DNA of 26,874 bases from a virus (Duplodnaviria; Heunggongvirae; Uroviricota; Caudoviricetes). The notes beneath the pieces are model-generated. The model had not been told where the DNA came from. It did no database searches and worked only from the letters and a program-made list of their open reading frames with translations. This document shows positions 1 through 12,148 of this stretch, one piece after another (position 1 is the stretch's first letter; each line of letters starts with the position of its first letter). The stretch spans positions 1 through 26,874 of IMG/VR virus record IMGVR_UViG_3300046453_000093. The stretch is one strand, 5' to 3'. The position numbers and the translations under genes were made by a program.

Positions 1-12
1 TTCTGCCATGCA

Positions 13-92
13 TACCCTACCCCCTATACCCTATACACTACCCCCTATTTCAAATGATACCCCCTACCCTATACCCTATACCCTACCCCCTA
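13..92. repeat. C-rich short-repeat cluster (TACCC / TACCCCCTA units)
   Basis: TACCCCCTA at 18, 39, 58 and 84; TACCCTA at 13, 27, 65, 72 and 79; the minus strand reads as G-tracts. Confidence 0.9.
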
Positions 93-727
93 TGGTATGC
101 CTTTTTATCTCCTAAAATTTACCAATTACATCATAACCCCTCTTATGGGGTTAACACTATGGGGGGGTAGTTTACAAATCAATCCGCTTTCTTCTCAGGG
201 CAAAAGGGGTGCAACACATCTAATTCGACAGGTCATTATTGTTTCTTCCATTTTATTCCAACTGACCCACCTTCCCTATCTCCACACCCATTATTCTCTC
301 ATTCTCCCACCTTACCAATCTATATGACTCCTCATTTCACCTGCCACTCTCCTCTCTTATTCACTAATTATTCCTATCTAATATTCCATCATTATCCAAT
401 TATACCAATATATCCCAATATCACCCTTCTATTCTAGGCATTCTTGCCTTCGTATTTCTATCGCTATTCTAATGTTAAATATAACCAATTTACTTTTATT
501 TTTTACCTCCCTTTCTACCTATCTCTCACTCTCATTTCCTTCTTATATCCTACGAATACAGCACTCTACGACAATATCTGTCTTTTATTCTATCACTCGA
601 CATTTTTTTCGAATCCATATTGACCGTTTTTCCCATCAAGTGTATAATATAATTAAAAGTGGAAAAAAGTTTACCTTTTTAGATTTTCAAAGAACGATAG
701 ATTGGAACGATTAGAGAGAAGGGAAGA

Positions 728-931
728 TTGAAAATGACAAAACTATACCCATATGAACTATACTGCCTTATACAAGCCTACCGTATCATTGATAAGACAA
801 CAGATGAAATGAATTCAGACGATAGATACAATGAAGCTTTAGGTGAAACATGGTCTATTCTCCATGATGAAATTATCAAACAAACAGGTCAAGAAGATGT
901 ATATGCCTACATACGAACCTTGAATCTATAG
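728..931 (+). CDS. small hypothetical phage protein (67 aa)
   Basis: RBS-like GAAGGGAAG before the TTG/ATG start; 11 bp before the next gene; no recognisable motif. Confidence 0.65.
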   Translation: MKMTKLYPYELYCLIQAYRIIDKTTDEMNSDDRYNEALGETWSILHDEIIKQTGQEDVYAYIRTLNL

Positions 932-942
932 GATGTGATATA

Positions 943-1695
943 TTGGCAACTGAACATATTTATCTACCAAACGAGGTCTTTACCGACCTGAAACTACATA
1001 TTCCTAATGGAAGTCAGACAGCCTTTGCTTACTCCTATTTGTACTATATTACTTATCTTTATCGGTACTGTAAGTACATAAGTGACAATGGCGATAAAGT
1101 CACTCAGGAAGCCATAAAGGAAGTCTTGGGATACTCCCCCAAAAATAAGAAGGTAGATTACATCATAAAGAAGGGGGGGGTACTTGACAACCTAATGTAC
1201 TCAGAGACTACTACAGACTACCCTATCCAGTATTTTTATGATGATGATGACCTACTTACTTTTGAAACTATCAGCAACTATAAAGGGATAATCAAGAATC
1301 TTAATGACCGTAATTTCAAGATTAAAAAACCACTTAGAGCCTTCCACCGTAGCCTAAAAGCCATTGAAGACAAAGAATTATCAGGCACATTCTATGAAGT
1401 GGAAAACACCCATCGGATTGATTTTCGTGTGTTCCTTACGATTATTATGAATGGTGATTTAGGTACAGCAGGGTTTTACCTGTACGGATACCTGAAGCAT
1501 AAAAACGACATCTTCAAGTCAGGTTATCAACGCTCATATGAAAAACTTGGGTTTGATACTGGATTCTCAGAAAAAACAGTTCGGAAATACGTCAATCTTC
1601 TTGAGTTCAACAATCTTATCAGCGTAGAAAGGAAATTGTTCGACATAAAACTTTCACAAGAAGATTATGAAGCAAACATATATAATGTAGTATAG
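943..1695 (+). CDS. winged-HTH DNA-binding protein, possibly two HTH domains
   Basis: 250 aa, TTG start after AGGATGTGA; C-terminal SYEKLGFDTGFSEKTVRKYVNLLEFNNLI is a typical wHTH; TQEAIKEVLGY is a second HTH-like segment. Confidence 0.7.
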   Translation: MATEHIYLPNEVFTDLKLHIPNGSQTAFAYSYLYYITYLYRYCKYISDNGDKVTQEAIKEVLGYSPKNKKVDYIIKKGGVLDNLMYSETTTDYPIQYFYDDDDLLTFETISNYKGIIKNLNDRNFKIKKPLRAFHRSLKAIEDKELSGTFYEVENTHRIDFRVFLTIIMNGDLGTAGFYLYGYLKHKNDIFKSGYQRSYEKLGFDTGFSEKTVRKYVNLLEFNNLISVERKLFDIKLSQEDYEANIYNVV

Positions 1696-1879
1696 GTCGC
1701 ACCCATTGAGAGGATTGACATTTAATGCTAACAATTGACAAAAACAATATTTATAAGCAATTCGCAAAAGTCGAATTACTACTTCAGTTAAAAAGAGTAG
1801 AAGAACAATTTAACTTAACACATAAAGAAATTGTCAACATATTGGAAGAACTTCTTTCAAACATTAAGGAAAAATAGTT

Positions 1880-2746
1880 TTATGATTCCATCCAGTTATA
1901 GAAAGGTACAGGGGGGTAGTAAACATCCTCAGAATCTTGTACCCCCTCTATTTTGGGCAACAATAAAGCTACCCCATTGGCAAAGAATGTTGGTGGATAG
2001 ATTACTTTTTTCACTTTTTCATTATGCTCTAACATGTTTCGATAGGCAACAGCTAAATCTATCAACTTGAACTTAGTTATCCCTTTTGTAACAAATTGTT
2101 TCGCAGTTTCTTTAATCATATGTTTAGAGAATCCTTTTTCCTGTAAAAAATTATCCAATATACACATATTTCTTTTAATCATCACATCTTCAACATTACT
2201 ACTCTCAGACTTTATCTGTTTAAGAGAAGAAGATTTATTAGGTTTTAATATTTTATTATGGTTTTTATCTTGGGTTTTTATAACTGCCTTTTTATATATA
2301 GGGAATTTCCCTTTGGGCAAAACTAGTTTTCTCTTTTGGGCATTTCTTGAATTTTCTTTTGGATTATCTGTTTTTGCCTTTGTGACTTTCTTAGAGAATC
2401 GTTCAATCAGAGATTTAACATTATCTATTAATATCTGAAAATACCGAATGTTCCCTCTCTTGTTCGTTGCTTTAATCAATCCTTTTTCCTCTAATATTTT
2501 AATCGCAGTTGCTTGTGCCTTATATTTCAATGTGGTTAATTCTTCTAATTTTTCAGTAGTACAATAGAAAGAACCATCTTTGTCTAGTTCCTTCTTACTA
2601 GCGTGATAGTTAAATCTACTTAGTAATTCCGACAATACAATAGTAGGATTTACCCCTAGTTCCCTCATTACTCCCCTATTCAACAGGACGAATTCACAAG
2701 ATTGATAGGATTTGGTTAGTTCTTTTACAGTTTCTAAAAAAGACAT
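1880..2746 (-). CDS. replication initiator (N-terminal wHTH, phage/plasmid Rep-like)
   Basis: GGAGG RBS; N-terminal PTIVLSELLSRFNY...FYCTTEKLEELTTL...AIKILEEKGLI wHTH; basic low-complexity linker; C-terminal PFYNWME, which I recall from Bacillus Rep-like HTH proteins; antisense-RNA layout upstream. Confidence 0.75.
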   Translation of the reverse strand: MSFLETVKELTKSYQSCEFVLLNRGVMRELGVNPTIVLSELLSRFNYHASKKELDKDGSFYCTTEKLEELTTLKYKAQATAIKILEEKGLIKATNKRGNIRYFQILIDNVKSLIERFSKKVTKAKTDNPKENSRNAQKRKLVLPKGKFPIYKKAVIKTQDKNHNKILKPNKSSSLKQIKSESSNVEDVMIKRNMCILDNFLQEKGFSKHMIKETAKQFVTKGITKFKLIDLAVAYRNMLEHNEKVKKVIYPPTFFANGVALLLPKIEGVQDSEDVYYPPVPFYNWMES

Positions 2747-2812
2747 AATAAAAAACCTCCATTTCCCCCATGAAAAACTTAAAAAAGTCAGTAGGAAATT
2801 AAAGGTTTGTAC

Positions 2813-2841
2813 TTCACATTTTTGAAATTACATGCTATACT
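2813..2841 (+). promoter_or_regulatory. sigma-A promoter for the counter-transcript
   Basis: TTCACA-N17-TATACT with extended -10 TG at 2833-2834. Confidence 0.75.
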
Positions 2842-2847
2842 TAACAC

Positions 2848-2950
2848 ATAAATCAAATAGATGAATACAAACCCCCTACTTTTAGGTTAATAATATTCGT
2901 GGTCGCCAAACTTTGAAATATTATTAACTCGTCTATGGGGTTTCTTTTTT
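2848..2950 (+). ncRNA. putative antisense copy-control RNA (ctRNA) against the rep leader
   Basis: promoter upstream; 12-bp stem 2886-2897/2917-2928 with loop containing CGCCAA; outer AAACCCC/GGGGTTT stem then a T-run; lies opposite the rep 5' leader; ends approximate. Confidence 0.7.
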
Positions 2951-2972
2951 TGTTATTTTTTGGTTAATAGTT

Positions 2973-3281
2973 TTATTTTTTATTTTCTGTTTGCCAGTAC
3001 CCTTTTGGGTTATATGGACTATGGTAATCTTTTTGCAGTTCTATTTTTTCTGCATCTTTATATTTCTCTAATAACTCCACAGCTTTCAATAATGCTATGT
3101 TAAAATCTTGATTTCTATATTCTATATCGCAGACACCTAAATGTCCCCTCTCAGTAACATGGACACGATAAAAGCCAATCATTTTTTCTATGTATGCTAC
3201 TACATTACCTTCGCAACGCTGATAGTATTTCCACCTATCTGTATAGAACCATCCCTCTATTTGGTTATGTCCCCAAATCAT
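2973..3281 (-). CDS. hypothetical protein (102 aa, MIWGHNQ...)
   Basis: start moved to ATG 3281, which follows GAGGGTG RBS; the ORF-track start at 3356 has no RBS. Confidence 0.65.
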   Translation of the reverse strand: MIWGHNQIEGWFYTDRWKYYQRCEGNVVAYIEKMIGFYRVHVTERGHLGVCDIEYRNQDFNIALLKAVELLEKYKDAEKIELQKDYHSPYNPKGYWQTENKK

Positions 3282-3431
3282 CTTATTCACCCTCTTCATT
3301 ATTTTTGGGTAACACAAAAACACCCAAGTATAACTTGCGTGTGCATAAGATGGCACAGCAAAAAATACAAATAAACCTATTTATGACACTGCTACAAAGG
3401 TGGCAATCCTACAAAAAGTTAATACAAAGGT

Positions 3432-3457
3432 AAAGTTATCAACATGTGGATAACTTT
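3432..3457. promoter_or_regulatory. inverted pair of DnaA boxes
   Basis: TTATCAACA (3436-3444) abutting TGTGGATAA (3445-3453, a perfect TTATCCACA on minus), inside a 26-bp near-palindrome. Confidence 0.7.
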
Positions 3458-3521
3458 GGTTTTTCTACGCAAATAAATCATAACATATTTCGATATATTT
3501 TGTAAACAATAAAAAAAGATG

Positions 3522-3550
3522 TTGCATGTTATTGTCGATTGTTGTATTAT
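3522..3550 (+). promoter_or_regulatory. sigma-A-like promoter
   Basis: TTGCAT-N17-TATTAT. Confidence 0.5.
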
Positions 3551-3627
3551 AACTATAGAACTTAATATTTGCCAAAGCAAAAAACAAAAACCTATAATCT
3601 ACAAAAGAAGTACACTACGCTGAAACA

Positions 3628-3658
3628 GCCCCTTACCAATTTTGGTAGGGGGTTTTTT
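3628..3658 (+). terminator. intrinsic terminator
   Basis: GCCCCTTACCA/TGGTAGGGGGT stem followed by a T-run. Confidence 0.75.
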
Positions 3659-3680
3659 CATTCTATTATTTAATTCTCTA

Positions 3681-3720
3681 CAATAAAAAGCCCTCACCAT
3701 AAGGTAAAGGCTTTTTATTG
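3681..3720 (-). terminator. bidirectional terminator closing the parMR operon
   Basis: CAATAAAAAGCC/GGCTTTTTATTG perfect 12-bp stem immediately after the parR stop. Confidence 0.8.
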
Positions 3721-3721
3721 T

Positions 3722-4006
3722 TCACAGCTTGTCAAACTTGCTTGCTACATGCCTTATTAATTCTTCTTGATTAATAATTGACGGTTCAAGCTTCTTAACG
3801 ACAGATTCTGATAGTTTTACCATTGGCTTGGGAAGTATAACTTTATTTTGTTTAGGCGCTAGTCCTCTATATTTTAGTCCATCCCTCATGAGTTCCTTGC
3901 AATATCCTGCAAAGTTATAATTCACTTCTTGAAGAATTGCAATTAGGTCAGCATCACCGATTTCACTAAAACTGATAGAAGCCCTATTGTTCTTGTCTAA
4001 GCCCAT
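3722..4006 (-). CDS. parR: ParR-like ribbon-helix-helix centromere adaptor
   Basis: 94 aa, 3 bp downstream of parM; N-terminal beta-alpha-alpha pattern RASISF-DADLIAIL-NFAGYCKELMRDGL; basic tail. Confidence 0.7.
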   Translation of the reverse strand: MGLDKNNRASISFSEIGDADLIAILQEVNYNFAGYCKELMRDGLKYRGLAPKQNKVILPKPMVKLSESVVKKLEPSIINQEELIRHVASKFDKL

Positions 4007-4009
4007 GTT

Positions 4010-5113
4010 TTACCCTTCCTTTGCTACTAACCCTTCTTTGCTTTCAGTGATTTTATACGAGCCACCTGAAGTCCTTACAACCTGTTTGCCATTCTTCTTA
4101 GCATGACGAACACCATATTTGCGTAAACCTCTTGCTGTATTATGAACACCAAGAAAGATTTTTTCGAATTCGTATTCTTCAAGGTATCTCTCCAAATACT
4201 CTTTTAAAACCACTGTTCCACCACCAGTGAAAATTACAGCGTCTAGGTACGGAATAGAGTTTCTAAATAAGGTTTCCCATTCGGAAATCAATTCACCCGC
4301 ATGTAATTCAAATACTTCGTCTACAATTGGTTGGATATTAGTCCCGCCTGAAATATACCCTTGCTTGATTAGTTTTGGCAATACCCCCTGTGGATATTTT
4401 TTGCCAAAAGTTTCTTCAATACGTCTACCAATCTCAACATAAGCTGAGTACATCCCATTATTATTATGTTTTGTCAGGTCTGTAATTGGGTCTAAATCAT
4501 TTAAAGTAAGAAAGTTGACTGTTCCTGCACCAATATCCACTACAGAGACAAATTTGGTTGCTAATTCAGGGTTTGAAATTTCACCATCATCACTTAAGAT
4601 AAGGTCACAAAATGTTCCGAAAGGCTGTGACACCACAAGTACTTCTTTGATATCAACAGTTTTTTCAAAATCAGAACCATCAGCTAAAGTCAGCTTAATA
4701 ACGTGCTTTTTTTTGAAGATTTTTTGTAAATCACTTATTCTACTCTCGTTTTCAGAATGTTCCACAGGTAAGCCTAATACAATTGGGTCAACTTTAACAA
4801 CGTCATGGTCTTCAGCTAACATTGCCAATCCTGCTTTTGCAAGTGCGGGGAACATCGGATGTTTGTGTTTGTTGTTCCCACCAATCCAAGTGGTCTGCAT
4901 GTCTTGGTCTACTGCACCCTGACCAACTAAGAATTTCTTATTGTCATACTCTACTACAATATGAGATAAAGGGTCTTTTTCCTTACTGCTTAATACTGTG
5001 TCGTGTTTCTCCTTATATGTAGTTACATTGGATGGATAGTAAACTTGTTGTTTTCCGTTAAAGCCTTTTCCTTCACCGTATCCATCATCATAGCCCCATA
5101 CTTCTATTGTCAT
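4010..5113 (-). CDS. parM: ParM/StbA-family actin-like partition ATPase
   Basis: actin-fold motifs GYDDGYGEGK (phosphate 1), VDIGAGT (phosphate 2), FTGGG (adenosine); GGGGAGG RBS. Confidence 0.92.
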   Translation of the reverse strand: MTIEVWGYDDGYGEGKGFNGKQQVYYPSNVTTYKEKHDTVLSSKEKDPLSHIVVEYDNKKFLVGQGAVDQDMQTTWIGGNNKHKHPMFPALAKAGLAMLAEDHDVVKVDPIVLGLPVEHSENESRISDLQKIFKKKHVIKLTLADGSDFEKTVDIKEVLVVSQPFGTFCDLILSDDGEISNPELATKFVSVVDIGAGTVNFLTLNDLDPITDLTKHNNNGMYSAYVEIGRRIEETFGKKYPQGVLPKLIKQGYISGGTNIQPIVDEVFELHAGELISEWETLFRNSIPYLDAVIFTGGGTVVLKEYLERYLEEYEFEKIFLGVHNTARGLRKYGVRHAKKNGKQVVRTSGGSYKITESKEGLVAKEG

Positions 5114-5220
5114 AGTTAAATATTCCTCCCCTATTGTGATAATACTACATTATTAGAATATCATTAATAGAGGTCAAAATCAACAAAATTATGCCATTTT
5201 CTCTTACATTTTCCTACAAA

Positions 5221-5360
5221 ATCCGACTTTATCCTATAATATCTTAAAATATCGGAGAAAATCTTATAATATCGCAGAAAATCTTATAATATCATACAAT
5301 ATCAGATAAAATCTCATAAAATAAGATAATATCGGAGAAAATCTTACTTTATCCTACTTT
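5221..5360. repeat. 14 tandem 10-bp units, putative parC centromere
   Basis: exact 10-bp phase; 13 of 14 units start ATC and all have A at position 6 (e.g. ATCTTATAAT x2, ATCGGAGAAA x2); directly upstream of parM. Confidence 0.8.
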
Positions 5361-5389
5361 TCCAGTTATTTACAAATAAAATCCAACCA

Positions 5390-6451
5390 TTATAGTTGGA
5401 TTTTCTTCAAATTATTCATTAATTCAATTTGAACATTTCTACTCGATTGTTGCACAAGTTTCATCAATTGTTCTTGAGTCAAGTTTTCCAATGATGATAT
5501 GTCAACCTTCTGACCAATTTTCAATCCAACCATTTCACTAAATTTTTTCTTCTTTTTCATGTAGTGTTTCATGGTTGTACCAAATGATTTATGGTCGCCT
5601 TGTTCTGCCACTGCCATAATGTCCCCGCCACTGATTTCATACGCTTCATTGATTCCGCATTTCTTTAAACTGTGAAATGTAATGTCATCATCTAATTTTA
5701 ATTTCCCTCTTAAACGTTGCATCATTACAACAACTGTCTTTTTCTCTAATGGAAAAATACGTCTATCTTTATGCTTCTTTTTTAATCCCATTAGTCTGTC
5801 ATGAAGTTCATCAGTTATTGGTTTTTTGCTGATTTGTTTTCCTTTACCGATAGCTTCCTCTTCAGCACAAAGTACCCAAACTCCATCAATATTTTCAATA
5901 TTATCCCAAGTCAGGTTGAGTAGTGAGTTTTGTCTAAAACAAGTAATAACAGCAGTTTCCATCAAAGATGCTTTTATATCGCCTTTCTTTTCATCTTTTA
6001 CCAACTCAATCATATCCAATACTTCTTCCCAAGATAATACTCCATAAGATTCGGATTCGCCTTTAATCTTGTCAACATTAAACCAAGCTTCTTTTACTGG
6101 CAGGTCTTTTGCTTCAAGTCTACTGTATAATTTTTTGACTGAACTAATTTTTCTAGCAATTGAACTAGGGGCATAAGGCTTTCCGTCATTGTAAGCAATG
6201 TCATTATTTTTTGCTAATTGTAATTGATATGCTTCAACATCATCAACAGTAATGATTAAATCTTCAATTGTTAACATTTCAAGTGCCTTGTATCGAACTG
6301 CTCTAAAAAATTGTTTAATATCAGCTTCATAACTGGATGCAGTATTGGTACTGTTTAATGCCTTGGTTTCTAAAAAACATGAGATATAAGAATAAGCGTT
6401 CTTTTTCAGTTTGGATACATTGTTATCATATTTGGGTTGTTTCTTTGCCAT
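5390..6451 (-). CDS. tyrosine-recombinase-fold protein (resolvase, or SPbeta YopP/YopR-like regulator)
   Basis: SAM-like N-terminus (NTASSYEADIKQFF, SSIARKISSVKKLY); box I CFRQNSLLNLTWDNI; box II TFHSLKK...GDHKSFGTTMKHY; start set at ATG 6451, 9 nt from AGGAG. Confidence 0.85.
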   Translation of the reverse strand: MAKKQPKYDNNVSKLKKNAYSYISCFLETKALNSTNTASSYEADIKQFFRAVRYKALEMLTIEDLIITVDDVEAYQLQLAKNNDIAYNDGKPYAPSSIARKISSVKKLYSRLEAKDLPVKEAWFNVDKIKGESESYGVLSWEEVLDMIELVKDEKKGDIKASLMETAVITCFRQNSLLNLTWDNIENIDGVWVLCAEEEAIGKGKQISKKPITDELHDRLMGLKKKHKDRRIFPLEKKTVVVMMQRLRGKLKLDDDITFHSLKKCGINEAYEISGGDIMAVAEQGDHKSFGTTMKHYMKKKKKFSEMVGLKIGQKVDISSLENLTQEQLMKLVQQSSRNVQIELMNNLKKIQL

Positions 6452-6484
6452 AATTACCATCTCCTAGAATTATTTTCTAAATAC

Positions 6485-6513
6485 ATCATAACACCGTTTA
6501 TGATGTCCGTCAA
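6485..6513 (-). promoter_or_regulatory. sigma-A promoter of the recombinase-like gene
   Basis: TTGACG-N17-TATGAT on minus. Confidence 0.7.
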
Positions 6514-6635
6514 TGATAAATGGAATAATTTTCTGTATATTTTTTAAGAGGTCGGGGCATACCTATTCTGAAGTCACAAAATGACTCGTACAGCATTGTA
6601 ATCGCTCCATGACTAAACCCTTTGACTTCCATTTG

Positions 6636-6666
6636 AAAGCCCTGTAGAAGACCACGCAGGGCTTTT
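6636..6666. terminator. hairpin / possible terminator
   Basis: AAAGCCCTG/CAGGGCTTT stem followed by a short T-run; direction unclear. Confidence 0.5.
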
Positions 6667-6821
6667 GGTGACGAATTATGGGATTTGGTTTTCTTGTTTT
6701 TATTAGAAATCTATCTGTCAGTAAAATACGTTAACTTTTTACCAATGTGTTTAATATAGGTTATATTTATCATTAATATTAAAAAGGTAAACTATTTACC
6801 AATGTAAAAATATAGACTAAT

Positions 6822-6862
6822 ATACTCTACTACTTTAATACTCTACTACTTTAGTATACTAA
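6822..6862. repeat. 16-bp tandem duplication plus palindrome
   Basis: ATACTCTACTACTTTA at 6822 and 6838; TTAGTATACTAA palindrome at 6851-6862. Confidence 0.85.
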
Positions 6863-6982
6863 AATAAAGTGATTATATTATTATTAAATAAGAGAGAATA
6901 AGAGGATTATTAGTCTGTATTATATTACCGTAAAAAAGATAACCTATTTCCAAAAAAGTTGTGTTTACAAGGATTATTAACT

Positions 6983-7018
6983 AAAAACCCATCTATCCCT
7001 GTCGGTAGATGGGTTTTT
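6983..7018 (-). terminator. bidirectional terminator after tubZ
   Basis: AAAAACCCATCTA/TAGATGGGTTTTT 13-bp stem. Confidence 0.85.
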
Positions 7019-7046
7019 GAGTATGCATTTCTCCTGTCTTCTATCT

Positions 7047-8159
7047 TTATCTCTTATATCTACTGAGGATGTCTGTTACCGATTTCTTAGACTGTTTTGG
7101 CTTTGTTCTTAATCTTGCAGAAAAATCTTGGTTGACCGTTACTTTATAATTTTGGTTTTCTTCATCATCAAACATTTGTTCCATTCTTGTTTCCTGTTCT
7201 TTAATGATTTGAGAAATATCATTCAACCTTGTATTAATCCATGAAAGACCAGTTAGGATAGATAAAACAGTACCTCTCTTTTCATGATAATTTCCCTCAA
7301 ATAAATCAATAGGCATTCCTTTGTCAAATGCTCCAAAGATGGATTTATAATTTAAGAATTGCATAAGTGATTCTTCAGCATCCAGTACAATACCTGATTT
7401 CATAACTCTATTATATTCAATAGGGGAGAACACTGATTCTTCCCAAGACATCCGAATTTTATCAGTAACAGTCTCAACACTGAATTTTATATCCTCACTG
7501 AATTTAGATATATCTGTTTCTGCAATTAGACCAATTCCTTTTGTGTTCAAGATGGATAGCAAATCTTTCCTGTCAAGGTTTCCATTCTTAGATGTCTTGG
7601 TTGTGTAGGAATACAATTCGTCTAAGAGATTAACAGTGGTTTCGTTTATTGTCTTGTATAGTTGATTTTTTGCATTAACATTAATTCTGACTTTTTCATT
7701 ATCAATTGGCATAATGCAAATATCTAATTTAGATAATTCTTCAAAGGTTTGCAAACAATTCATTTGATTGCTGACAACCTCTGTTTTGTCAGGGATGATT
7801 GGCATAGCTACAAAAGTTTTTTCAGGCATTTCATTCGCCAAAATTTCTAGAAGGATAGGGGCTATTCCACTACCACTACCACCACCTGTAGAAAAAGTCA
7901 CAATGATAATTTCAGGATTGATAAATGTCTGTTTGACAAAATTTAAAGCTGATTCCCAATTGTTTGCCATTAGTCTGATAGCTTCATCACGATTATGACC
8001 TACACCTTCAGAACCAACTAGCTTAAGTGTGTTCTCAACATGTTCCAAAGAATCTAAATCAGACTTAGAAAAGTTAATTGCCCCTGTTAGAAAATTATGC
8101 TTACTGGATTCGTCTGCAATATTGCCACCCGCACCACCAACACCTAATATTCCTATCAT
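7047..8159 (-). CDS. tubZ: tubulin/FtsZ-superfamily GTPase (TubZ/RepX-like)
   Basis: GVGGAGGNI T1 loop; STGGGSGSG tubulin signature; IDNE; T7-like NLDRKDL; basic C-terminal tail; ATGA overlap with the upstream wHTH gene. Confidence 0.88.
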   Translation of the reverse strand: MIGILGVGGAGGNIADESSKHNFLTGAINFSKSDLDSLEHVENTLKLVGSEGVGHNRDEAIRLMANNWESALNFVKQTFINPEIIIVTFSTGGGSGSGIAPILLEILANEMPEKTFVAMPIIPDKTEVVSNQMNCLQTFEELSKLDICIMPIDNEKVRINVNAKNQLYKTINETTVNLLDELYSYTTKTSKNGNLDRKDLLSILNTKGIGLIAETDISKFSEDIKFSVETVTDKIRMSWEESVFSPIEYNRVMKSGIVLDAEESLMQFLNYKSIFGAFDKGMPIDLFEGNYHEKRGTVLSILTGLSWINTRLNDISQIIKEQETRMEQMFDDEENQNYKVTVNQDFSARLRTKPKQSKKSVTDILSRYKR

Positions 8160-8452
8160 TCTTCCATCTCTCCCTCTAATGATTTTTCAATTGCCAACAC
8201 GCCTAAATCTGTAACATAGAGCTTATGTTCCCTAATGCCTGTCACAGTTTCAACAAAGTTTGCTACATCTAGTCTGTAAATGGTTTTTCTTAGATTGGCT
8301 TCAGATATATCAGCTACTTCAGATAACTCCTTTTTCTTCATTGCTTTAAATGGTGCAGTTGCTTTATTGTCAATCAAAACGCCTAAGACAGAAATATCAT
8401 CAATAGTTAGACGATTAACAATATGAAGAAAGTAGTTTTCACTATCAATCAC
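8156..8452 (-). CDS. tubR: TubR-like winged-helix adaptor
   Basis: 98 aa wHTH (KKELSEVADISEANLRKTIYRLDVANFV...LYVTDLG), translationally coupled to tubZ; GTG start after AAAGGGG. Confidence 0.7.
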   Translation of the reverse strand: MIDSENYFLHIVNRLTIDDISVLGVLIDNKATAPFKAMKKKELSEVADISEANLRKTIYRLDVANFVETVTGIREHKLYVTDLGVLAIEKSLEGEMEE

Positions 8453-8536
8453 TAAAAATCAACCCCTTTCAATCGTGATATTAAAATATATTGATTGATA
8501 CTACTATATTAAAAAACATCTAAAAATATACCTTTT

Positions 8537-9142
8537 TTATACATTTTTTCTTAACCCTAAAATACTCCACTCTCTCGCTTCATCAATCAGCATTTCTACA
8601 ATTTCAATAAAAGTTATCTGTTCTTTAAAGGGATTGTTCTTATATAGATACTTTAAAGTATCTCTTAGCAATTTTTTTTGTAGTTCGCTTAAATTTGTCG
8701 TATATAAACGGATTAATCTGTCTATAATGTCAATATCACGTATAGCACACTCAAGTAGAAGTCTTGTAGCTGATGATACAGACGTTAAACCCAATGAGAA
8801 TGCTAATACTTCCATACTCTCATTAAATTCCTTGTTGAAGCGTGTAGAGACTCTTTTAGATGGTACGTTCTTAACAATGTATCGGCTATGGGCTAAATTC
8901 GGATTTCCTCTATATATAGTGTTTTCGTGTTGGTAATCTCTTCGGAAATATTGAGAAATAAAATCAAGAACTTTCCTTGAACGCAAGCCATCCATACAGA
9001 TAAATTCAACTACATTTTTAATGGGTTGACCTGTGATGTCTGCAAGGTTGGCAATGCAATTGTAGAGATGAATTGGAACTGTCGGCTTAACATCCACCTT
9101 CTTATCACTTCTTTCCTTCCTATTACTTACCTTCTCCCTCAT
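8537..9142 (-). CDS. DNA-binding protein with two RHH-like motifs
   Basis: KPTVPIHLYNCIANLADITGQPIKNVVEFICMDGL and KRVSTRFNKEFNESMEVLAFSLGLTSVSSATRLLLECAI both fit beta-alpha-alpha; GAGGTG RBS. Confidence 0.6.
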   Translation of the reverse strand: MREKVSNRKERSDKKVDVKPTVPIHLYNCIANLADITGQPIKNVVEFICMDGLRSRKVLDFISQYFRRDYQHENTIYRGNPNLAHSRYIVKNVPSKRVSTRFNKEFNESMEVLAFSLGLTSVSSATRLLLECAIRDIDIIDRLIRLYTTNLSELQKKLLRDTLKYLYKNNPFKEQITFIEIVEMLIDEAREWSILGLRKNV

Positions 9143-9279
9143 TGATTATCACCTCAAAATTGATAGATTTTCCCTAGAACACTGTACATCTGTCCCTGCT
9201 TTAATAAAGTATATGGCAGGGGAGGGAGGAGTATGATAGTATCATATAAATATATCTTAAAAATATATTTAAAATATTC

Positions 9280-9308
9280 TAGACAAGTGATAAATATAAT
9301 GATAGAAT
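9280..9308 (+). promoter_or_regulatory. sigma-A promoter containing the 19-bp box
   Basis: TAGACA-N17-TAGAAT with extended TG; box ACAAGTGATAAATATAATG at 9283-9301. Confidence 0.8.
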
Positions 9309-9340
9309 AAGATTATGATAAATTGAGAGGAATGAAGTGC

Positions 9341-11551
9341 ATGATTGAAATTGAGGTGAAAATTGATAGATTGGTATGGTCAAGCACAAGCAATGATTTT
9401 AAGATTTATGGTGCTTTGCCTACAAACGAAGATGATATTAACCTACATGATTTGAAATTCAACCAATATAACAATCTTTCAATAAGTGGCGTAATGCCAA
9501 AATTAGAAGTGGGTTCTGTATATAATGTTAAAATGGTAGAAAAGAATAATCCCAAATATGGAATAGGATATGAAGTGCAAAATGTGTTTCAGAACCTACC
9601 AACATCAGTTGATGAACAAAAAGCATACTTATCTACATTATTAACAGAATTGCAAGTTCAAAATATCTATGAAGTATACAATGATGGGGAAGACATTATT
9701 GAACTAATGAAGACCAATAAGTTTGATTACCGTAAAATTAAAGGTATGGGAGAAACAACTTATAATGTTGTTAGAACAAAAGTTGTAGCTAACTTAGAAC
9801 TCCAAGAAGCTTTGATTGCATTGTCAAAATATGGATTAACATACAACATTGTCAGTAAACTTGTTAAAAAATATGGGTCTGCTAAACTAGTGGTTGATAA
9901 AATCACTGAGAATCCATATACACTTACAGAAGTGGATGGAATAGGATTTGCAAAATGTGATACATATGCTTTGAGCATGGGTGTTGAACCAACATCAAAC
10001 TACAGGATTGAAGCCTGTATTAAATACGTGCTAGACGATGTAGGGAATAACTCAGGTCATTCATGGTTGTCTATAACTGGACTAGTAAAGAAATGTACAG
10101 AGATGATGAAAATTGACCAAAAATATTCTGAGGAATATTTAAACAAATATAGTGGTAAGACTTTATACATAAGTGATGATAGAGTGGCTAGGATTAATCT
10201 TTACAATTATGAGAAGTGGATTTCTGAATCCGTCAAGCGACTTCTTTCAACAAAACCAAAACCAGTTGAAAACTTAGATGAAAAAATCAATAAAGCTGAA
10301 GAAAAACAGGGTTTTAATTTTACTGATGAACAAAGAGATGCTATCAAAATGGCTGTTGAAAATAACTTTGTTGTCATAACAGGTAAGGCAGGAACAGGTA
10401 AAACAACCATATTAAAAGGAATTGTAGAAGTATTAAAATCAGATGATGAATTTAAAGATTATTATGCATGTGCGCTGAGTGGAAAAGCGGCTCAACGTAT
10501 TGCTGAAAGTACAGGTCTAAATTCATCAACTATACATAGATTACTAGGTTGGAATGCTGAATCAAATGGTTTCCTTCATGATTATAATAATACATTGCCT
10601 AAAGGCGCAGGTGTACTTGATGAAGCTTCAATGGTAAATAGTTATATTTGCAATGCTTTATTTGGAGCAATGCCAACATGTGGAAAACTTATCGTATTAG
10701 GAGATGTCGAACAACTTGAACCAATTGGGGCAGGAAATGTATTTAAAGACCTAGTTGATAGTAAGTTTGTACCAAAGGTATATCTTACACAAGTTCACAG
10801 ACAGGCAATGAAAAGTGGAATTTTAAGTACTGCCAACAACATAAGAGAAGGTATTCAGTTTAATACGAAAGATAACTATGAAGAAAGAGTTATCGGAGAA
10901 TTAAAAGACCTTCACTTTAAACCATACAGAAAAGTAGAGACAGTTAAAAAGGCGATTATTAAAGCATGTAAACAATATTTGAATGCACCAAACTTTGATT
11001 TGATGAACTTTCAAGTAATTGTGCCACTAAAAAATCGTGGAGAGATTTGCACAAAAAAATTGAATATAGAGTTACAAGAAATATTTAACCCTGAAATGAA
11101 ACCTGTAATTAATAGAAATGGATACGATTTCAAAGAAGGGGACAAAGTAATACAGCAAGGAAACAATTATGATATTAATTGTTGGAATGGAACTCTAGGT
11201 ATTGTCAAGGAAGTGGACACTATCTTAAAGGAAATAACCATCGACTTTGTTGGAGTCGGCAGTGTTAAATATAATCAAGAAGATATGGGACAAATTGATA
11301 TGGCATACGCACTGACTGTACATCGAGTACAGGGAAGTCAGTTTGACAATGTTGTAATAGGATTAGACTATTCTTCATATGTTTTATTGTCAAGACAACT
11401 TGTTTATACTGCACTAACAAGAGCAAGTAAATTGGCAATCCTTATTTGTGAGAACGAAGCTTTGATACATGCCATTCGAACTGATAACGCTTCAAAAAGA
11501 AATACCTTCCTCAAGGACATGTTAGCAGAAAATTTGACAAATGATAAATAA
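9341..11551 (+). CDS. recD2: RecD2-family SF1B helicase
   Basis: N-terminal OB/HhH region (EVDGIGFAKCD); GKAGTGKTT, LDEASM, GDVEQL, HRQ, YALTVHRVQGSQF, YTALTRA; start moved to ATG 9341 after GAGG. Confidence 0.93.
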   Translation: MIEIEVKIDRLVWSSTSNDFKIYGALPTNEDDINLHDLKFNQYNNLSISGVMPKLEVGSVYNVKMVEKNNPKYGIGYEVQNVFQNLPTSVDEQKAYLSTLLTELQVQNIYEVYNDGEDIIELMKTNKFDYRKIKGMGETTYNVVRTKVVANLELQEALIALSKYGLTYNIVSKLVKKYGSAKLVVDKITENPYTLTEVDGIGFAKCDTYALSMGVEPTSNYRIEACIKYVLDDVGNNSGHSWLSITGLVKKCTEMMKIDQKYSEEYLNKYSGKTLYISDDRVARINLYNYEKWISESVKRLLSTKPKPVENLDEKINKAEEKQGFNFTDEQRDAIKMAVENNFVVITGKAGTGKTTILKGIVEVLKSDDEFKDYYACALSGKAAQRIAESTGLNSSTIHRLLGWNAESNGFLHDYNNTLPKGAGVLDEASMVNSYICNALFGAMPTCGKLIVLGDVEQLEPIGAGNVFKDLVDSKFVPKVYLTQVHRQAMKSGILSTANNIREGIQFNTKDNYEERVIGELKDLHFKPYRKVETVKKAIIKACKQYLNAPNFDLMNFQVIVPLKNRGEICTKKLNIELQEIFNPEMKPVINRNGYDFKEGDKVIQQGNNYDINCWNGTLGIVKEVDTILKEITIDFVGVGSVKYNQEDMGQIDMAYALTVHRVQGSQFDNVVIGLDYSSYVLLSRQLVYTALTRASKLAILICENEALIHAIRTDNASKRNTFLKDMLAENLTNDK

Positions 11552-11562
11552 AATGATATTAT
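11534..11562 (+). promoter_or_regulatory. sigma-A promoter containing the 19-bp box
   Basis: TTGACA-N17-TATTAT with extended TG; box ACAAATGATAAATAAAATG at 11537-11555; overlaps the recD2 stop. Confidence 0.8.
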
Positions 11563-11584
11563 ATTACTATAGAAGAAACAAGTA

Positions 11585-12148
11585 ATGCACCAAAGAGGGA
11601 AGTGGCAAGTAGTAATGGGAGTTGTGAAAATAGATATACATAAAAGCGAGAGAAACTTCAAAAATCTAAGTCTATCAGACACAAATGTTGTGAAGTGGCT
11701 AATCCTCTATAGGGATAAGATAGATTTATATTATGGAGAAAAAACAGATAATTTTTATAACCATGCAGGAAACGTAAAAGAGTTAAATGCAGAATTAGTT
11801 AATCTTTTCGTTTGCTTGGATGATTTAATAGATAAATGTAAATTCAAAGAAGAACAGTTGGCACTTTTAAAATTGTTGTTTATGGGTTACACATTTAAAG
11901 ATATTGAAGATGCCACACAAAAAGCCACCTCTCGTACAATAAAAAGAAGATTTGAGAGTATTTGTAGGACAATTACAGAAATGAATGAAAGACTTTGGAA
12001 AATCCAAATACATAAGAATTACTTAAGTACTGAATTTAGAAAATGTTCAAAGTGCGAATCAGAATTACCACTGACAGATTACTTCTTCTATAAGGACAAA
12101 AAAGGCAAAGATGGATATAGGAGTAATTGCAAAAAATGTACAGCATAA
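11585..12148 (+). CDS. sigma-70 region-4-like HTH regulator with C-terminal C4 zinc finger
   Basis: QLALLKLLFMGYTFKDIEDAT...TIKRRFESIC HTH; CSKC-x24-CKKC; exact start uncertain (11585, 11615 or 11624). Confidence 0.7.
   Translation: MHQRGKWQVVMGVVKIDIHKSERNFKNLSLSDTNVVKWLILYRDKIDLYYGEKTDNFYNHAGNVKELNAELVNLFVCLDDLIDKCKFKEEQLALLKLLFMGYTFKDIEDATQKATSRTIKRRFESICRTITEMNERLWKIQIHKNYLSTEFRKCSKCESELPLTDYFFYKDKKGKDGYRSNCKKCTA

Follow-up and report, generated by a model that had tools for sequence, protein, structure and literature searches.

Why would one phage carry two filament systems for moving DNA, an actin-like ParMRC and a tubulin-like TubRZ, side by side? The question was raised by an initial annotation of a 26,874-nt stretch of the viral record IMGVR_UViG_3300046453_000093 (hereafter the window), and the locus was analysed computationally. 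The source contig (90.9 kb, 57% complete) is part of an SPbeta/Tsamsa-like phage. It was confirmed that this large soil Bacillus-type phage holds two intact, adjacent systems. Our preferred explanation, to which we give about even chances, is that both work, are of separate origin and serve different functions within a single temperate phage.

Anatomy and integrity of the locus

The genes for ParM, the ParR-like adaptor, the recombinase, TubZ and TubR all lie on the minus strand (Table 1). As initially annotated, an intact ParM with an RHH adaptor and a centromere-like array stands 1.9 kb (1,933 bp from parM to tubZ) from an intact tubulin GTPase with a winged-helix adaptor. The two systems lie within 5 kb (4,731 bp), and a recombinase gene and cis DNA separate the motors. 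An Rfam search of positions 1–9500 gave terminator-like matches alone, all sub-threshold.

Table 1. Features of the locus, in window coordinates
Feature	Position	Strand	Basis
Rep-like initiator, wHTH N-terminus, 288 aa	1880..2746	-	RepA_N E=0.01; PHROG replication initiation O-like E=2e-9
Conserved 127-aa protein within the parMR-rep cassette, function unassigned	2973..3356	-	Counterpart at this location in L091, 66% identical
Inverted DnaA-box pair, candidate origin element of cassette	3436..3453	.	Sole such pair in the 90.9-kb contig
Terminator-like hairpin at end of parMR unit	3680..3721	-	19-nt arms, 89% complementary, 4-nt loop
ParR-like adaptor, 94 aa: RHH domain, linker, C-terminal helix	3722..4006	-	Family pattern, fold matches
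ParM actin-like ATPase, 367 aa	4010..5113	-	ALP_N, MreB-like_C, PHROG; Bastillevirinae phage ParM family
parC-like centromere, 17 degenerate units, 10-bp period	5192..5361	.	Autocorrelation, co-inheritance with parM
Tyrosine recombinase, Izhevsk/Tsamsa 'Xer family' type	5390..6460	-	Domain match; residues R, H, H, Y kept
Conserved cis element, repeated palindromes; candidate oriT, distal tubC or origin	6724..6960	.	
TubZ tubulin-like GTPase, 370 aa, pBM400 type	7047..8159	-	Tubulin E=1e-14; 43% identity to pBM400 TubZ
TubR winged-helix adaptor, 98 aa	8156..8452	-	pBM400 TubR 4asn E=3.8e-22; 44% identity
Candidate TubR operator/minimal tubC	8474..8501	-	About three 10-bp-phased units between -10 element and ribosome-binding site
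Probable RHH-type regulator, 201 aa, upstream of tubR, not TubY	8537..9142	-	RHH_5 E=0.02

The ways out allowed for in the initial annotation included an assembly chimera and an unexpressed or inactive system. A false join of two replicons would suit a metagenomic contig of 57% completeness; a second study contains near-identical fragments of both modules with none bridging them, and no independent contig across both was found. However, a single 13.5-kb unitig of even depth, from a run that may be the source sample, covers window positions 14–12000 with one mismatch and spans both modules. Each junction also agrees with gene orders present in relatives. No chimera is visible, and one is extremely unlikely. 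The motifs of both motors are intact, and both systems are under purifying selection relative to their nearest relatives (parM, dN about 0.11 with dS above 1.2; parR-like gene, dN/dS about 0.14–0.3 against locus L091; tubZ, about 0.07–0.18), the dN/dS values being averages over long branches that are blind to very recent relaxation.

ParMRC and its cassette

ParM was matched to the Pfam families ALP_N (E=4.8e-21) and MreB-like_C and to a PHROG partition protein (E=4e-63). The phosphate-1, connect, phosphate-2 and adenosine motifs of a type II actin-fold ATPase are all intact (residues 9, 162, 193 and 296). The ParR-like protein gave no significant match in Pfam, PDB-profile or Foldseek searches. 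Its family has a strand-helix-helix pattern and a conserved C-terminal helix, kept in 21 homologues. The top structural matches of its model (pLDDT 66) were RHH proteins, including pB171 ParR (2jd3, Z 4.2), and 2q2k aligned over 43 residues (Z 4.3, rmsd 2.0); a fold-match Z of about 4 is low but consistent. Family pattern and model point, with modest strength, to a small RHH adaptor with a C-terminal helix directly downstream of parM.

The phased direct repeats of a type II operon were found next to its promoter: the array adjoins the parM promoter-like site (5177–5149), on the upstream side of that site, its period is clear (autocorrelation z about 9) and it is co-inherited with parM. Its core resembles words of the tubR leader, and it was considered as a tubC. 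This was excluded and the array was kept as parC because it scores with the parM-side motif (z 2.7), not with the tubR-side motifs (z 0.1–0.8), and aligns with the 10-bp arrays found ahead of closely related ParM genes whose neighbouring genes differ.

Homologues of the Rep-like gene lie downstream of parMR in L090, L091 and L106. The link between parMR and the Rep-like gene is present in each of the three close loci for which DNA was available, and a fourth has the identical order relaxase-recombinase-ParM-ParR-281aa. The inverted DnaA-box pair is conserved in L091 and L106; single boxes in the contig are not more frequent than by chance. The Rep-like gene is absent from 19 near-complete tubZ-bearing relatives, and its product had no match on plasmids and only weak Lactobacillus O-like matches among phages. 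By these gene orders, ParMRC, the Rep-like gene and the paired DnaA boxes travel together as an accessory cassette.

TubRZ and its leader

TubZ has the intact G-box and T7 loop and the flexible C-terminal tail of a type III tubulin/FtsZ-fold GTPase, and the winged-helix tubR lies immediately upstream of tubZ, with a 4-nt overlap. The structural model of TubZ was nearest to c-st TubZ. A TubY-type third protein was not found downstream, where the recombinase comes after tubZ, and a tblastn search with c-st TubY found nothing in the 57%-complete contig or in the loci compared. The 201-aa regulator was also considered as TubY and rejected, as c-st TubY gives no match to it. It has a homologue at the matching place in L003 only (67%), and its structural neighbours, which are RHH/TraY-like, are weak (TM under 0.5).

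The tubR leader measures 84 bp, and the periodicity of its roughly three phased units is not significant in this single copy. When 42 tubR leaders were pooled, 10-bp periodicity reached z=12.4, control DNA giving 2.9, and the candidate operator is conserved in the closest relatives. No long iteron array was found upstream of tubR. Centromeres of studied systems measure 130–350 bp (PMC6009700).

The recombinase and the lost block

In the recombinase the second Arg is replaced by K, likewise in its phage relatives; no match was found among solved structures. The family is also core in relatives without ParMRC. The distance from tubZ to the recombinase is 586 bp here against 5.9–8.0 kb in the closest relatives, where a 6–8 kb block of M23, coupling-ATPase and relaxase genes intervenes. 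These genes were not found in the 90.9-kb contig. The cis element lies inside the block in relatives and is its only remnant here. The two motors lie within 2 kb because the intervening block was lost; their 5-kb proximity is secondary and does not mark a designed unit. An FtsK or coupling ATPase is encoded within 10 kb at 30 of 41 dereplicated tubZ loci, and tubRZ without the block also occurs in several other lineages. A weak relaxase tblastn match was seen at contig positions 33506–33919 (E=3e-4).

Distribution of the pairing

ALP_N was detected in one of 19 near-complete tubZ-bearing viral records, the other 18 being without detectable ParM, and Alp7A_C, ParA and the present Rep in none; these searches were a loose first look that divergent actins can escape, so the counts are lower bounds on co-occurrence. 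Other relatives combine TubRZ with ParA. Proviruses make up 17 of 36 tubZ-bearing records, and a serine integrase is present in 9 of 29. TubRZ is the only detected motor in five complete relatives free of serine integrase (G001, G004, G010, G011 and G032). No serine integrase was found in the 57% of the present genome covered by the contig.

All 18 Priestia plasmids with a pBM400-type TubZ, which form one near-identical lineage, also carry Alp7A; on about 70 further plasmids from Priestia, Alp7A occurs without this TubZ. The initial annotation overstated the rarity of such combinations in holding that replicons usually carry a single partition type: of the plasmids on which a system can be recognised, about 19% have several (bioRxiv 10.64898/2025.12.10.693275), and both pBM400 and phage G pair an actin with TubRZ. 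This pairing is uncommon but recurrent. By sequence comparison, TubRZ is lineage-core and ParMRC accessory, and the two come from separate gene blocks. Both components are of known kinds and multi-system replicons are common; the locus represents an arrangement that recurs elsewhere and is not a one-off machine.

Comparison with known systems

The nearest parallel is pBM400 of Priestia megaterium (NC_004604.2), source of the solved TubR (PDB 4ASN), with TubZ 43% and TubR 44% identical. An actin-like gene with a small downstream gene, a tyrosine recombinase and tubRZ lie there within 6.7 kb. The actin-like product, BMQ_RS26010, is annotated 'membrane protein' but matches Alp7A 5EC0 at E=7e-117; its gene is 3.7 kb from tubRZ. 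pBM400 differs in being a plasmid, in its Alp7A-type actin, outside the present ParM family, and in its divergent operons with an HTH gene between them. The initial statement that the pairing is not known to have been characterised holds in that no study of a type II and type III combination, and no paper joining Alp7A, megaterium and TubZ, was found in literature that comprised few subscription papers; yet the pairing itself recurs, unannotated, on pBM400.

TubZRC(Y) of Clostridium botulinum phage c-st (3V3T, 4XCQ) is the best structural match to TubZ (TM 0.72/0.88), with the same tubR-tubZ order and an FtsK-like gene nearby. Identity is 26%, and the present locus is without TubY or a long split tubC. 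ALP_N had no match in c-st. ParM shares the ALP_N fold with pSK41 ParMRC (3JS6, E=1.7e-12). In the Bastillevirinae Bp8p-C/T, B4 and Troll, ParM-like proteins are about 35% identical and the downstream RHH adaptor is related, but ParMR heads an M23-FtsK block there, whereas here it is tied to the Rep-like gene. TubZ was found in none of 39 records for those phages. Bacillus phage Izhevsk and other Tsamsavirus (Joanripponvirinae) have the same recombinase family (36%). Their layout is that of the present phage's relatives (RecD2/motor pair/M23/coupling ATPase/Replic_Relax/recombinase), with a 276-aa ParM-like protein and ParG where those have TubRZ. No tubulin was found in Izhevsk/Tsamsavirus. 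Bacillus phage G, described as lytic, combines TubR-TubZ with a ParM-like pair in one genome (gp137/gp138 and gp506/gp505), but in this jumbo phage of 497 kb some 308 kb separate the two, and its TubZ is 29% identical.

Possible roles of the two systems

Anatomy, intactness, selection, distribution and synteny are established here; expression, the functions of both systems and a plasmid lifestyle are inferred. [quoted passage not shown] It is about an even call that ParMRC partitions such a prophage and that TubRZ acts at a different stage, on phage DNA outside the chromosome. ParM, ParR and parC, with the Rep-like gene and the DnaA-box pair, would form an accessory replicon cassette in a variable slot after the recombinase. 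By analogy with known type II systems, ParR would bind the 10-bp array, repress parMR and cap ParM filaments, and sister plasmid-prophage copies would be pushed apart. TubR-TubZ would be the older, lineage-core pair, TubR binding the short phased site in its own leader and linking DNA to TubZ filaments that treadmill. The pair stands, in most relatives, at the head of a block that encodes an M23 peptidase, membrane proteins, an FtsK or TrwB-like ATPase and often a Replic_Relax protein. Its most likely role would be to bring extrachromosomal phage DNA to a pole or the septum, whether following infection or excision or during sporulation, lysogen maintenance being a less likely role. Loss of the block here left the motors within 2 kb of each other.

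The division of labour proposed initially is plausible and gains support from comparison, as TubRZ mostly occurs without a second motor, often in integrated prophages, and ParMRC travels with the Rep-like gene. Block synteny and the surviving cis element explain the proximity, the Priestia TubZ plasmids all have Alp7A, and the ParM family includes Bp8p-C, for which a lysogeny effect is reported (PMC6669507, citing Yuan 2015). Several points weigh against it. TubRZ, as sole detected motor in the five serine-integrase-free relatives, may be their partition system; ParM-ParG in the TubRZ slot of Izhevsk suggests that both may do the same job; and the Bastillevirinae block indicates that this ParM family is not specific to plasmid partition. 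Furthermore, the Rep-like gene is without a plasmid match, an integrase may lie outside the 57% covered, and the 18 Priestia plasmids count as one lineage.

The main rival, rather unlikely in our judgement, is redundant partition, in which an ancestral TubZRC was joined by a ParMRC-Rep cassette and both segregate the lysogen, as backup or as escape from incompatibility. The five relatives, the frequency of multiple systems on plasmids and the motor exchange in Izhevsk, a proposed plasmid prophage (PMC7685451), speak for it. Retention of TubRZ in many integrated proviruses, a leader of some three phased units against the far longer known centromeres, and the failure to find TubY speak against it. 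That TubRZ is a decaying leftover, orphaned by deletion of its partner block, agrees with the missing M23, coupling-ATPase and relaxase genes but is improbable given the intact motifs, the long-branch dN/dS of tubZ and the other lineages that retain tubRZ without the block.

Quite improbable, too, is a TubZ that acts like PhuZ in centring DNA during lytic growth, or that disturbs the FtsZ of the host; both variants were put forward in the initial annotation. Phage G, with its two pairs, and a weak PHROG PhuZ match (E=2.5e-14) favour it, but the fold is nearest to c-st and Bacillus TubZ, the TubR partner and the phased operator are conserved, and the same pair occurs on non-phage plasmids. The tubulin is thus a TubZ coupled to TubR and no PhuZ. 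PhuZ chains matched it at E about 3e-4, whereas c-st TubZ reached 2e-17, and PhuZ was not among the top 50 fold matches of the model; nothing pointing to FtsZ interference was found. Very unlikely is a replication function of TubRZ as a minireplicon, the locus being two fused replicons. In the B. cereus group, tubZ/tubR minireplicons support replication and second replicons co-occur on megaplasmids (PMC4219350), and a conserved palindromic element lies just downstream of tubZ. Those TubZs are distant (16–20% identity in structural alignment), and TubRZ is present in integrated prophages.

Besides the favoured division of labour, we tentatively consider that pBM400-type TubR-TubZ, although cited as type III plasmid partition, is mainly not a partition system of dividing cells but an interchangeable motor of a widespread Bacillus phage DNA-translocation module (M23 peptidase plus FtsK/coupling ATPase) that delivers phage DNA to the pole, the forespore or a neighbouring cell. 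Together with this, the motor would vary by lineage, TubRZ in SPbeta-like and ParMR in Tsamsa-like and Bastille-like phages. If true, this would explain why integrated prophages have TubRZ and why, on plasmid-like elements, it coexists with Alp7A, ParM or ParA. The question is testable now in a cultured host, P. megaterium QM B1551, whose plasmid pBM400 has an Alp7A-like pair and the TubRZ of the crystallised TubR. Should TubRZ be dispensable for pBM400 stability but needed at sporulation or transfer, one textbook example of type III partition would have to be read anew, and the M23/FtsK/coupling-ATPase block, common in phages yet so far without an explanation, would gain a function.

Components of the two systems

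All elements named by the initial annotation (ParM, RHH adaptor, array, TubZ and wHTH adaptor) were recovered intact by domain matches, motifs and fold. ParM, in which all four actin motifs are preserved, matched ALP_N and a PHROG partition family. The 94-aa ParR-like product encoded behind parM has the ParR layout (strand-helix-helix and a C-terminal helix); with its low-confidence model, RHH proteins ranked first, pB171 ParR among them. The long 10-bp array was attributed to the ParM system on alignment evidence, since close ParM homologues in different gene contexts have upstream 10-bp arrays alignable with it. The ParM clade of the window is small. Because it co-travels with ParR and a Rep-like gene, accompanied in two relatives by an inverted DnaA box pair, the ParM-ParR-Rep-like unit looks like an accessory replicon cassette. 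Ahead of the Rep-like gene, the leader has a conserved layout, with a promoter-like site and a hairpin between complementary runs. It had no match in Rfam and is possibly a copy-number control element.

TubZ has an intact G-box and T7 loop, and its fold resembles that of TubZ from the Clostridium botulinum phage c-st. The wHTH gene matched TubR of the Priestia megaterium plasmid pBM400 (E=3.8e-22). TubY was sought and not found. Among 206 TubZ homologues, a tubR gene lies nearly always ahead. The tubR leader of the window is only 84 bp, with about three phased units common to its closest relatives; over 42 distinct pooled tubR leaders the 10-bp periodicity was strong (z=12.4 versus 2.9 in control DNA). 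It looks like an operator or minimal tubC; at 130-350 bp, characterised centromeres exceed it in length (PMC6009700). At L073, which encodes a close pBM400-type TubZ, the tubR leader carries a tandem repeat of 40 bp, strong at z=16, and TubRZ is partnered there by ParA in place of Alp7A. Where the M23 block is missing, a pair of ~100-aa genes with RHH-like N-termini is conserved 3' of tubZ.

Coordinates of features in the window and in loci (L) of relatives
Feature	Window	Relatives	Detail
ParM	4010-5113
10-bp array	5192-5361		17 units, z about 9
Tyrosine recombinase	5390-6460
TubZ	7047-8159
Conserved cis element	6724-6960	L107:12715-12898; L004:12446-12621; L002:12407-12472; L003:3912-4050	~150 bp or more, repeated palindromes
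Rep-like leader	2750-2970	L091:2528-2775; L106:2480-2735; L090:12410-12670
Motor-headed blocks		Izhevsk L165:2044-11020; Bp8p-C L168:7001-13303; L013:9711-16683
RHH-like gene pair after tubZ		L006:11284-11873; L015:11409-12016; L038:11419-12008
tubR leader with tandem repeat		L073:9760-9960
pBM400 Alp7A homologue, then 124-aa gene		L092:4391-5964	NC_004604.2 39136-40709
Phage G motor loci		L105:2880-4377; L097:5641-7068
Actin-like gene of G009/G036		L098:743-1962; L100
Priestia 175-kb contig		L166:15248-20656

Frequency and precedents of the pairing

The pairing is real, intact and uncommon. Within 10 kb of tubZ, an actin was present at 3 of 41 dereplicated loci and ParA at three (one further ParA case was found besides), against 30 with an FtsK or coupling ATPase. 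The pairing arose several times, because the paired actins differ (25% identity between those of the window and Chengkuizengella) and sit on separate parts of the TubZ tree. The clearest precedent is pBM400, where the product of BMQ_RS26010, listed as a 'membrane protein', is homologous to Alp7A (5EC0, E=7e-117) and a 124-aa gene lies 3' of it; this actin-type pair lies 3.7 kb from tubRZ, and the homologue, a recombinase and tubRZ fall within 6.7 kb. The homologue was found in 18/18 Priestia plasmids with pBM400-type TubZ, as a split match in two of the plasmids; all 18 are of one lineage. A literature search gave no paper on P. megaterium that treats Alp7A and TubZ together. In phage G both motors are present, gp137 (TubR-like, E=3e-8) with gp138 TubZ, and gp506 (ALP_N) with the small gp505, ~308 kb apart. 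According to the available part of a plasmid survey (bioRxiv 10.64898/2025.12.10.693275), ~19% of plasmids with any partition system carry several; the type II + III combination is not singled out there. A 175-kb Priestia contig has tubRZ with M23 and FtsK and, after them, genes for a ParB_N protein and a small acid-soluble spore protein, then a ParA pair.

By their distribution, ParMRC and TubRZ have separate histories, TubRZ being widespread. An ALP_N protein was found in 1 of 19 near-complete viral records with pBM400-type TubZ, far from tubZ, and ParA, Alp7A and window-type Rep in none of the 19. Proviruses made up 17/36 TubZ-bearing records, and 9/29 carried a serine integrase. Conversely, no tubulin was detected in 39 records carrying a ParM-like protein, with a profile that did match in three control records. 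Two TubRZ proviruses (G009, G036) also have a 315-aa actin-like gene with a 93-aa gene 3', near the provirus edge and far from tubZ.

Proximity of the two motors

The 5-kb spacing stressed by the initial annotation is real in the window, but is most simply the result of a deletion. Between tubZ and the recombinase, the nearest tubZ relatives have 5.9-8.0 kb with M23 peptidase, TrwB-like ATPase and Replic_Relax genes; the window keeps 586 bp, with a palindromic cis element that lies inside this block in relatives. On one contig the block precedes genes for the recombinase, ParM, ParR and a 281-aa product, in the downstream order of the window. The pairing consists of known parts, apparently brought close by deletion, with precedents on the classic plasmid pBM400 and in the known phage G. 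The cis element is a candidate oriT, tubC or origin. In the recombinase and all its phage relatives, the second catalytic Arg (H-x-x-R box) is Lys; these proteins may catalyse recombination or serve as repressors.

The slot ahead of the M23/ATPase block is occupied by TubRZ in SPbeta-like phages, by a ParM-ParG pair in Izhevsk and by ParM of the window's own family in Bastillevirinae such as Bp8p-C, so the motors are interchangeable there. Among large Bacillus phages, three groups have a block with M23 and an FtsK or TrwB-like ATPase that is headed either by TubRZ or by a ParM-adaptor pair. Slot sharing suggests a common job tied to DNA translocation, which could serve integrated and lytic phages too.

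Proposed roles and alternatives

The window forms the left end of a linear viral contig of 90,874 bases (completeness estimate 57%) from a rhizosphere metagenome. Gene content and the tyrosine recombinase (36% identity to those of Izhevsk and Tsamsa) indicate a member of the large SPbeta/Tsamsa-like phages of Bacillaceae. Most probably, though at roughly even odds, a plasmid-form prophage would replicate from the cassette linked to ParMRC and be segregated by ParMRC, and TubRZ would move extrachromosomal phage DNA at another stage. Slot sharing weakens a clean split between an actin for lysogeny and a tubulin for something else. The main rival, redundant partition by both systems, is possible at about half that weight, because TubRZ is the sole motor in five complete relatives lacking a serine integrase.

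The other readings are less likely than these two. A vestigial TubRZ is improbable; dN was well below dS for ParM, ParR-like, TubZ and TubR relative to their nearest relatives. Slightly less probable still is the PhuZ-like lytic or anti-FtsZ role of TubZ entertained initially, given its c-st-like fold. TubRZ may serve replication, as in the tubZ/tubR minireplicons of B. cereus (PMC4219350), but this is quite unlikely here. A contig chimera is the least credible: a single unitig of uniform depth covers both modules, although in a run that is perhaps the source sample itself. Near-identical fragments of both modules occur in a second study.
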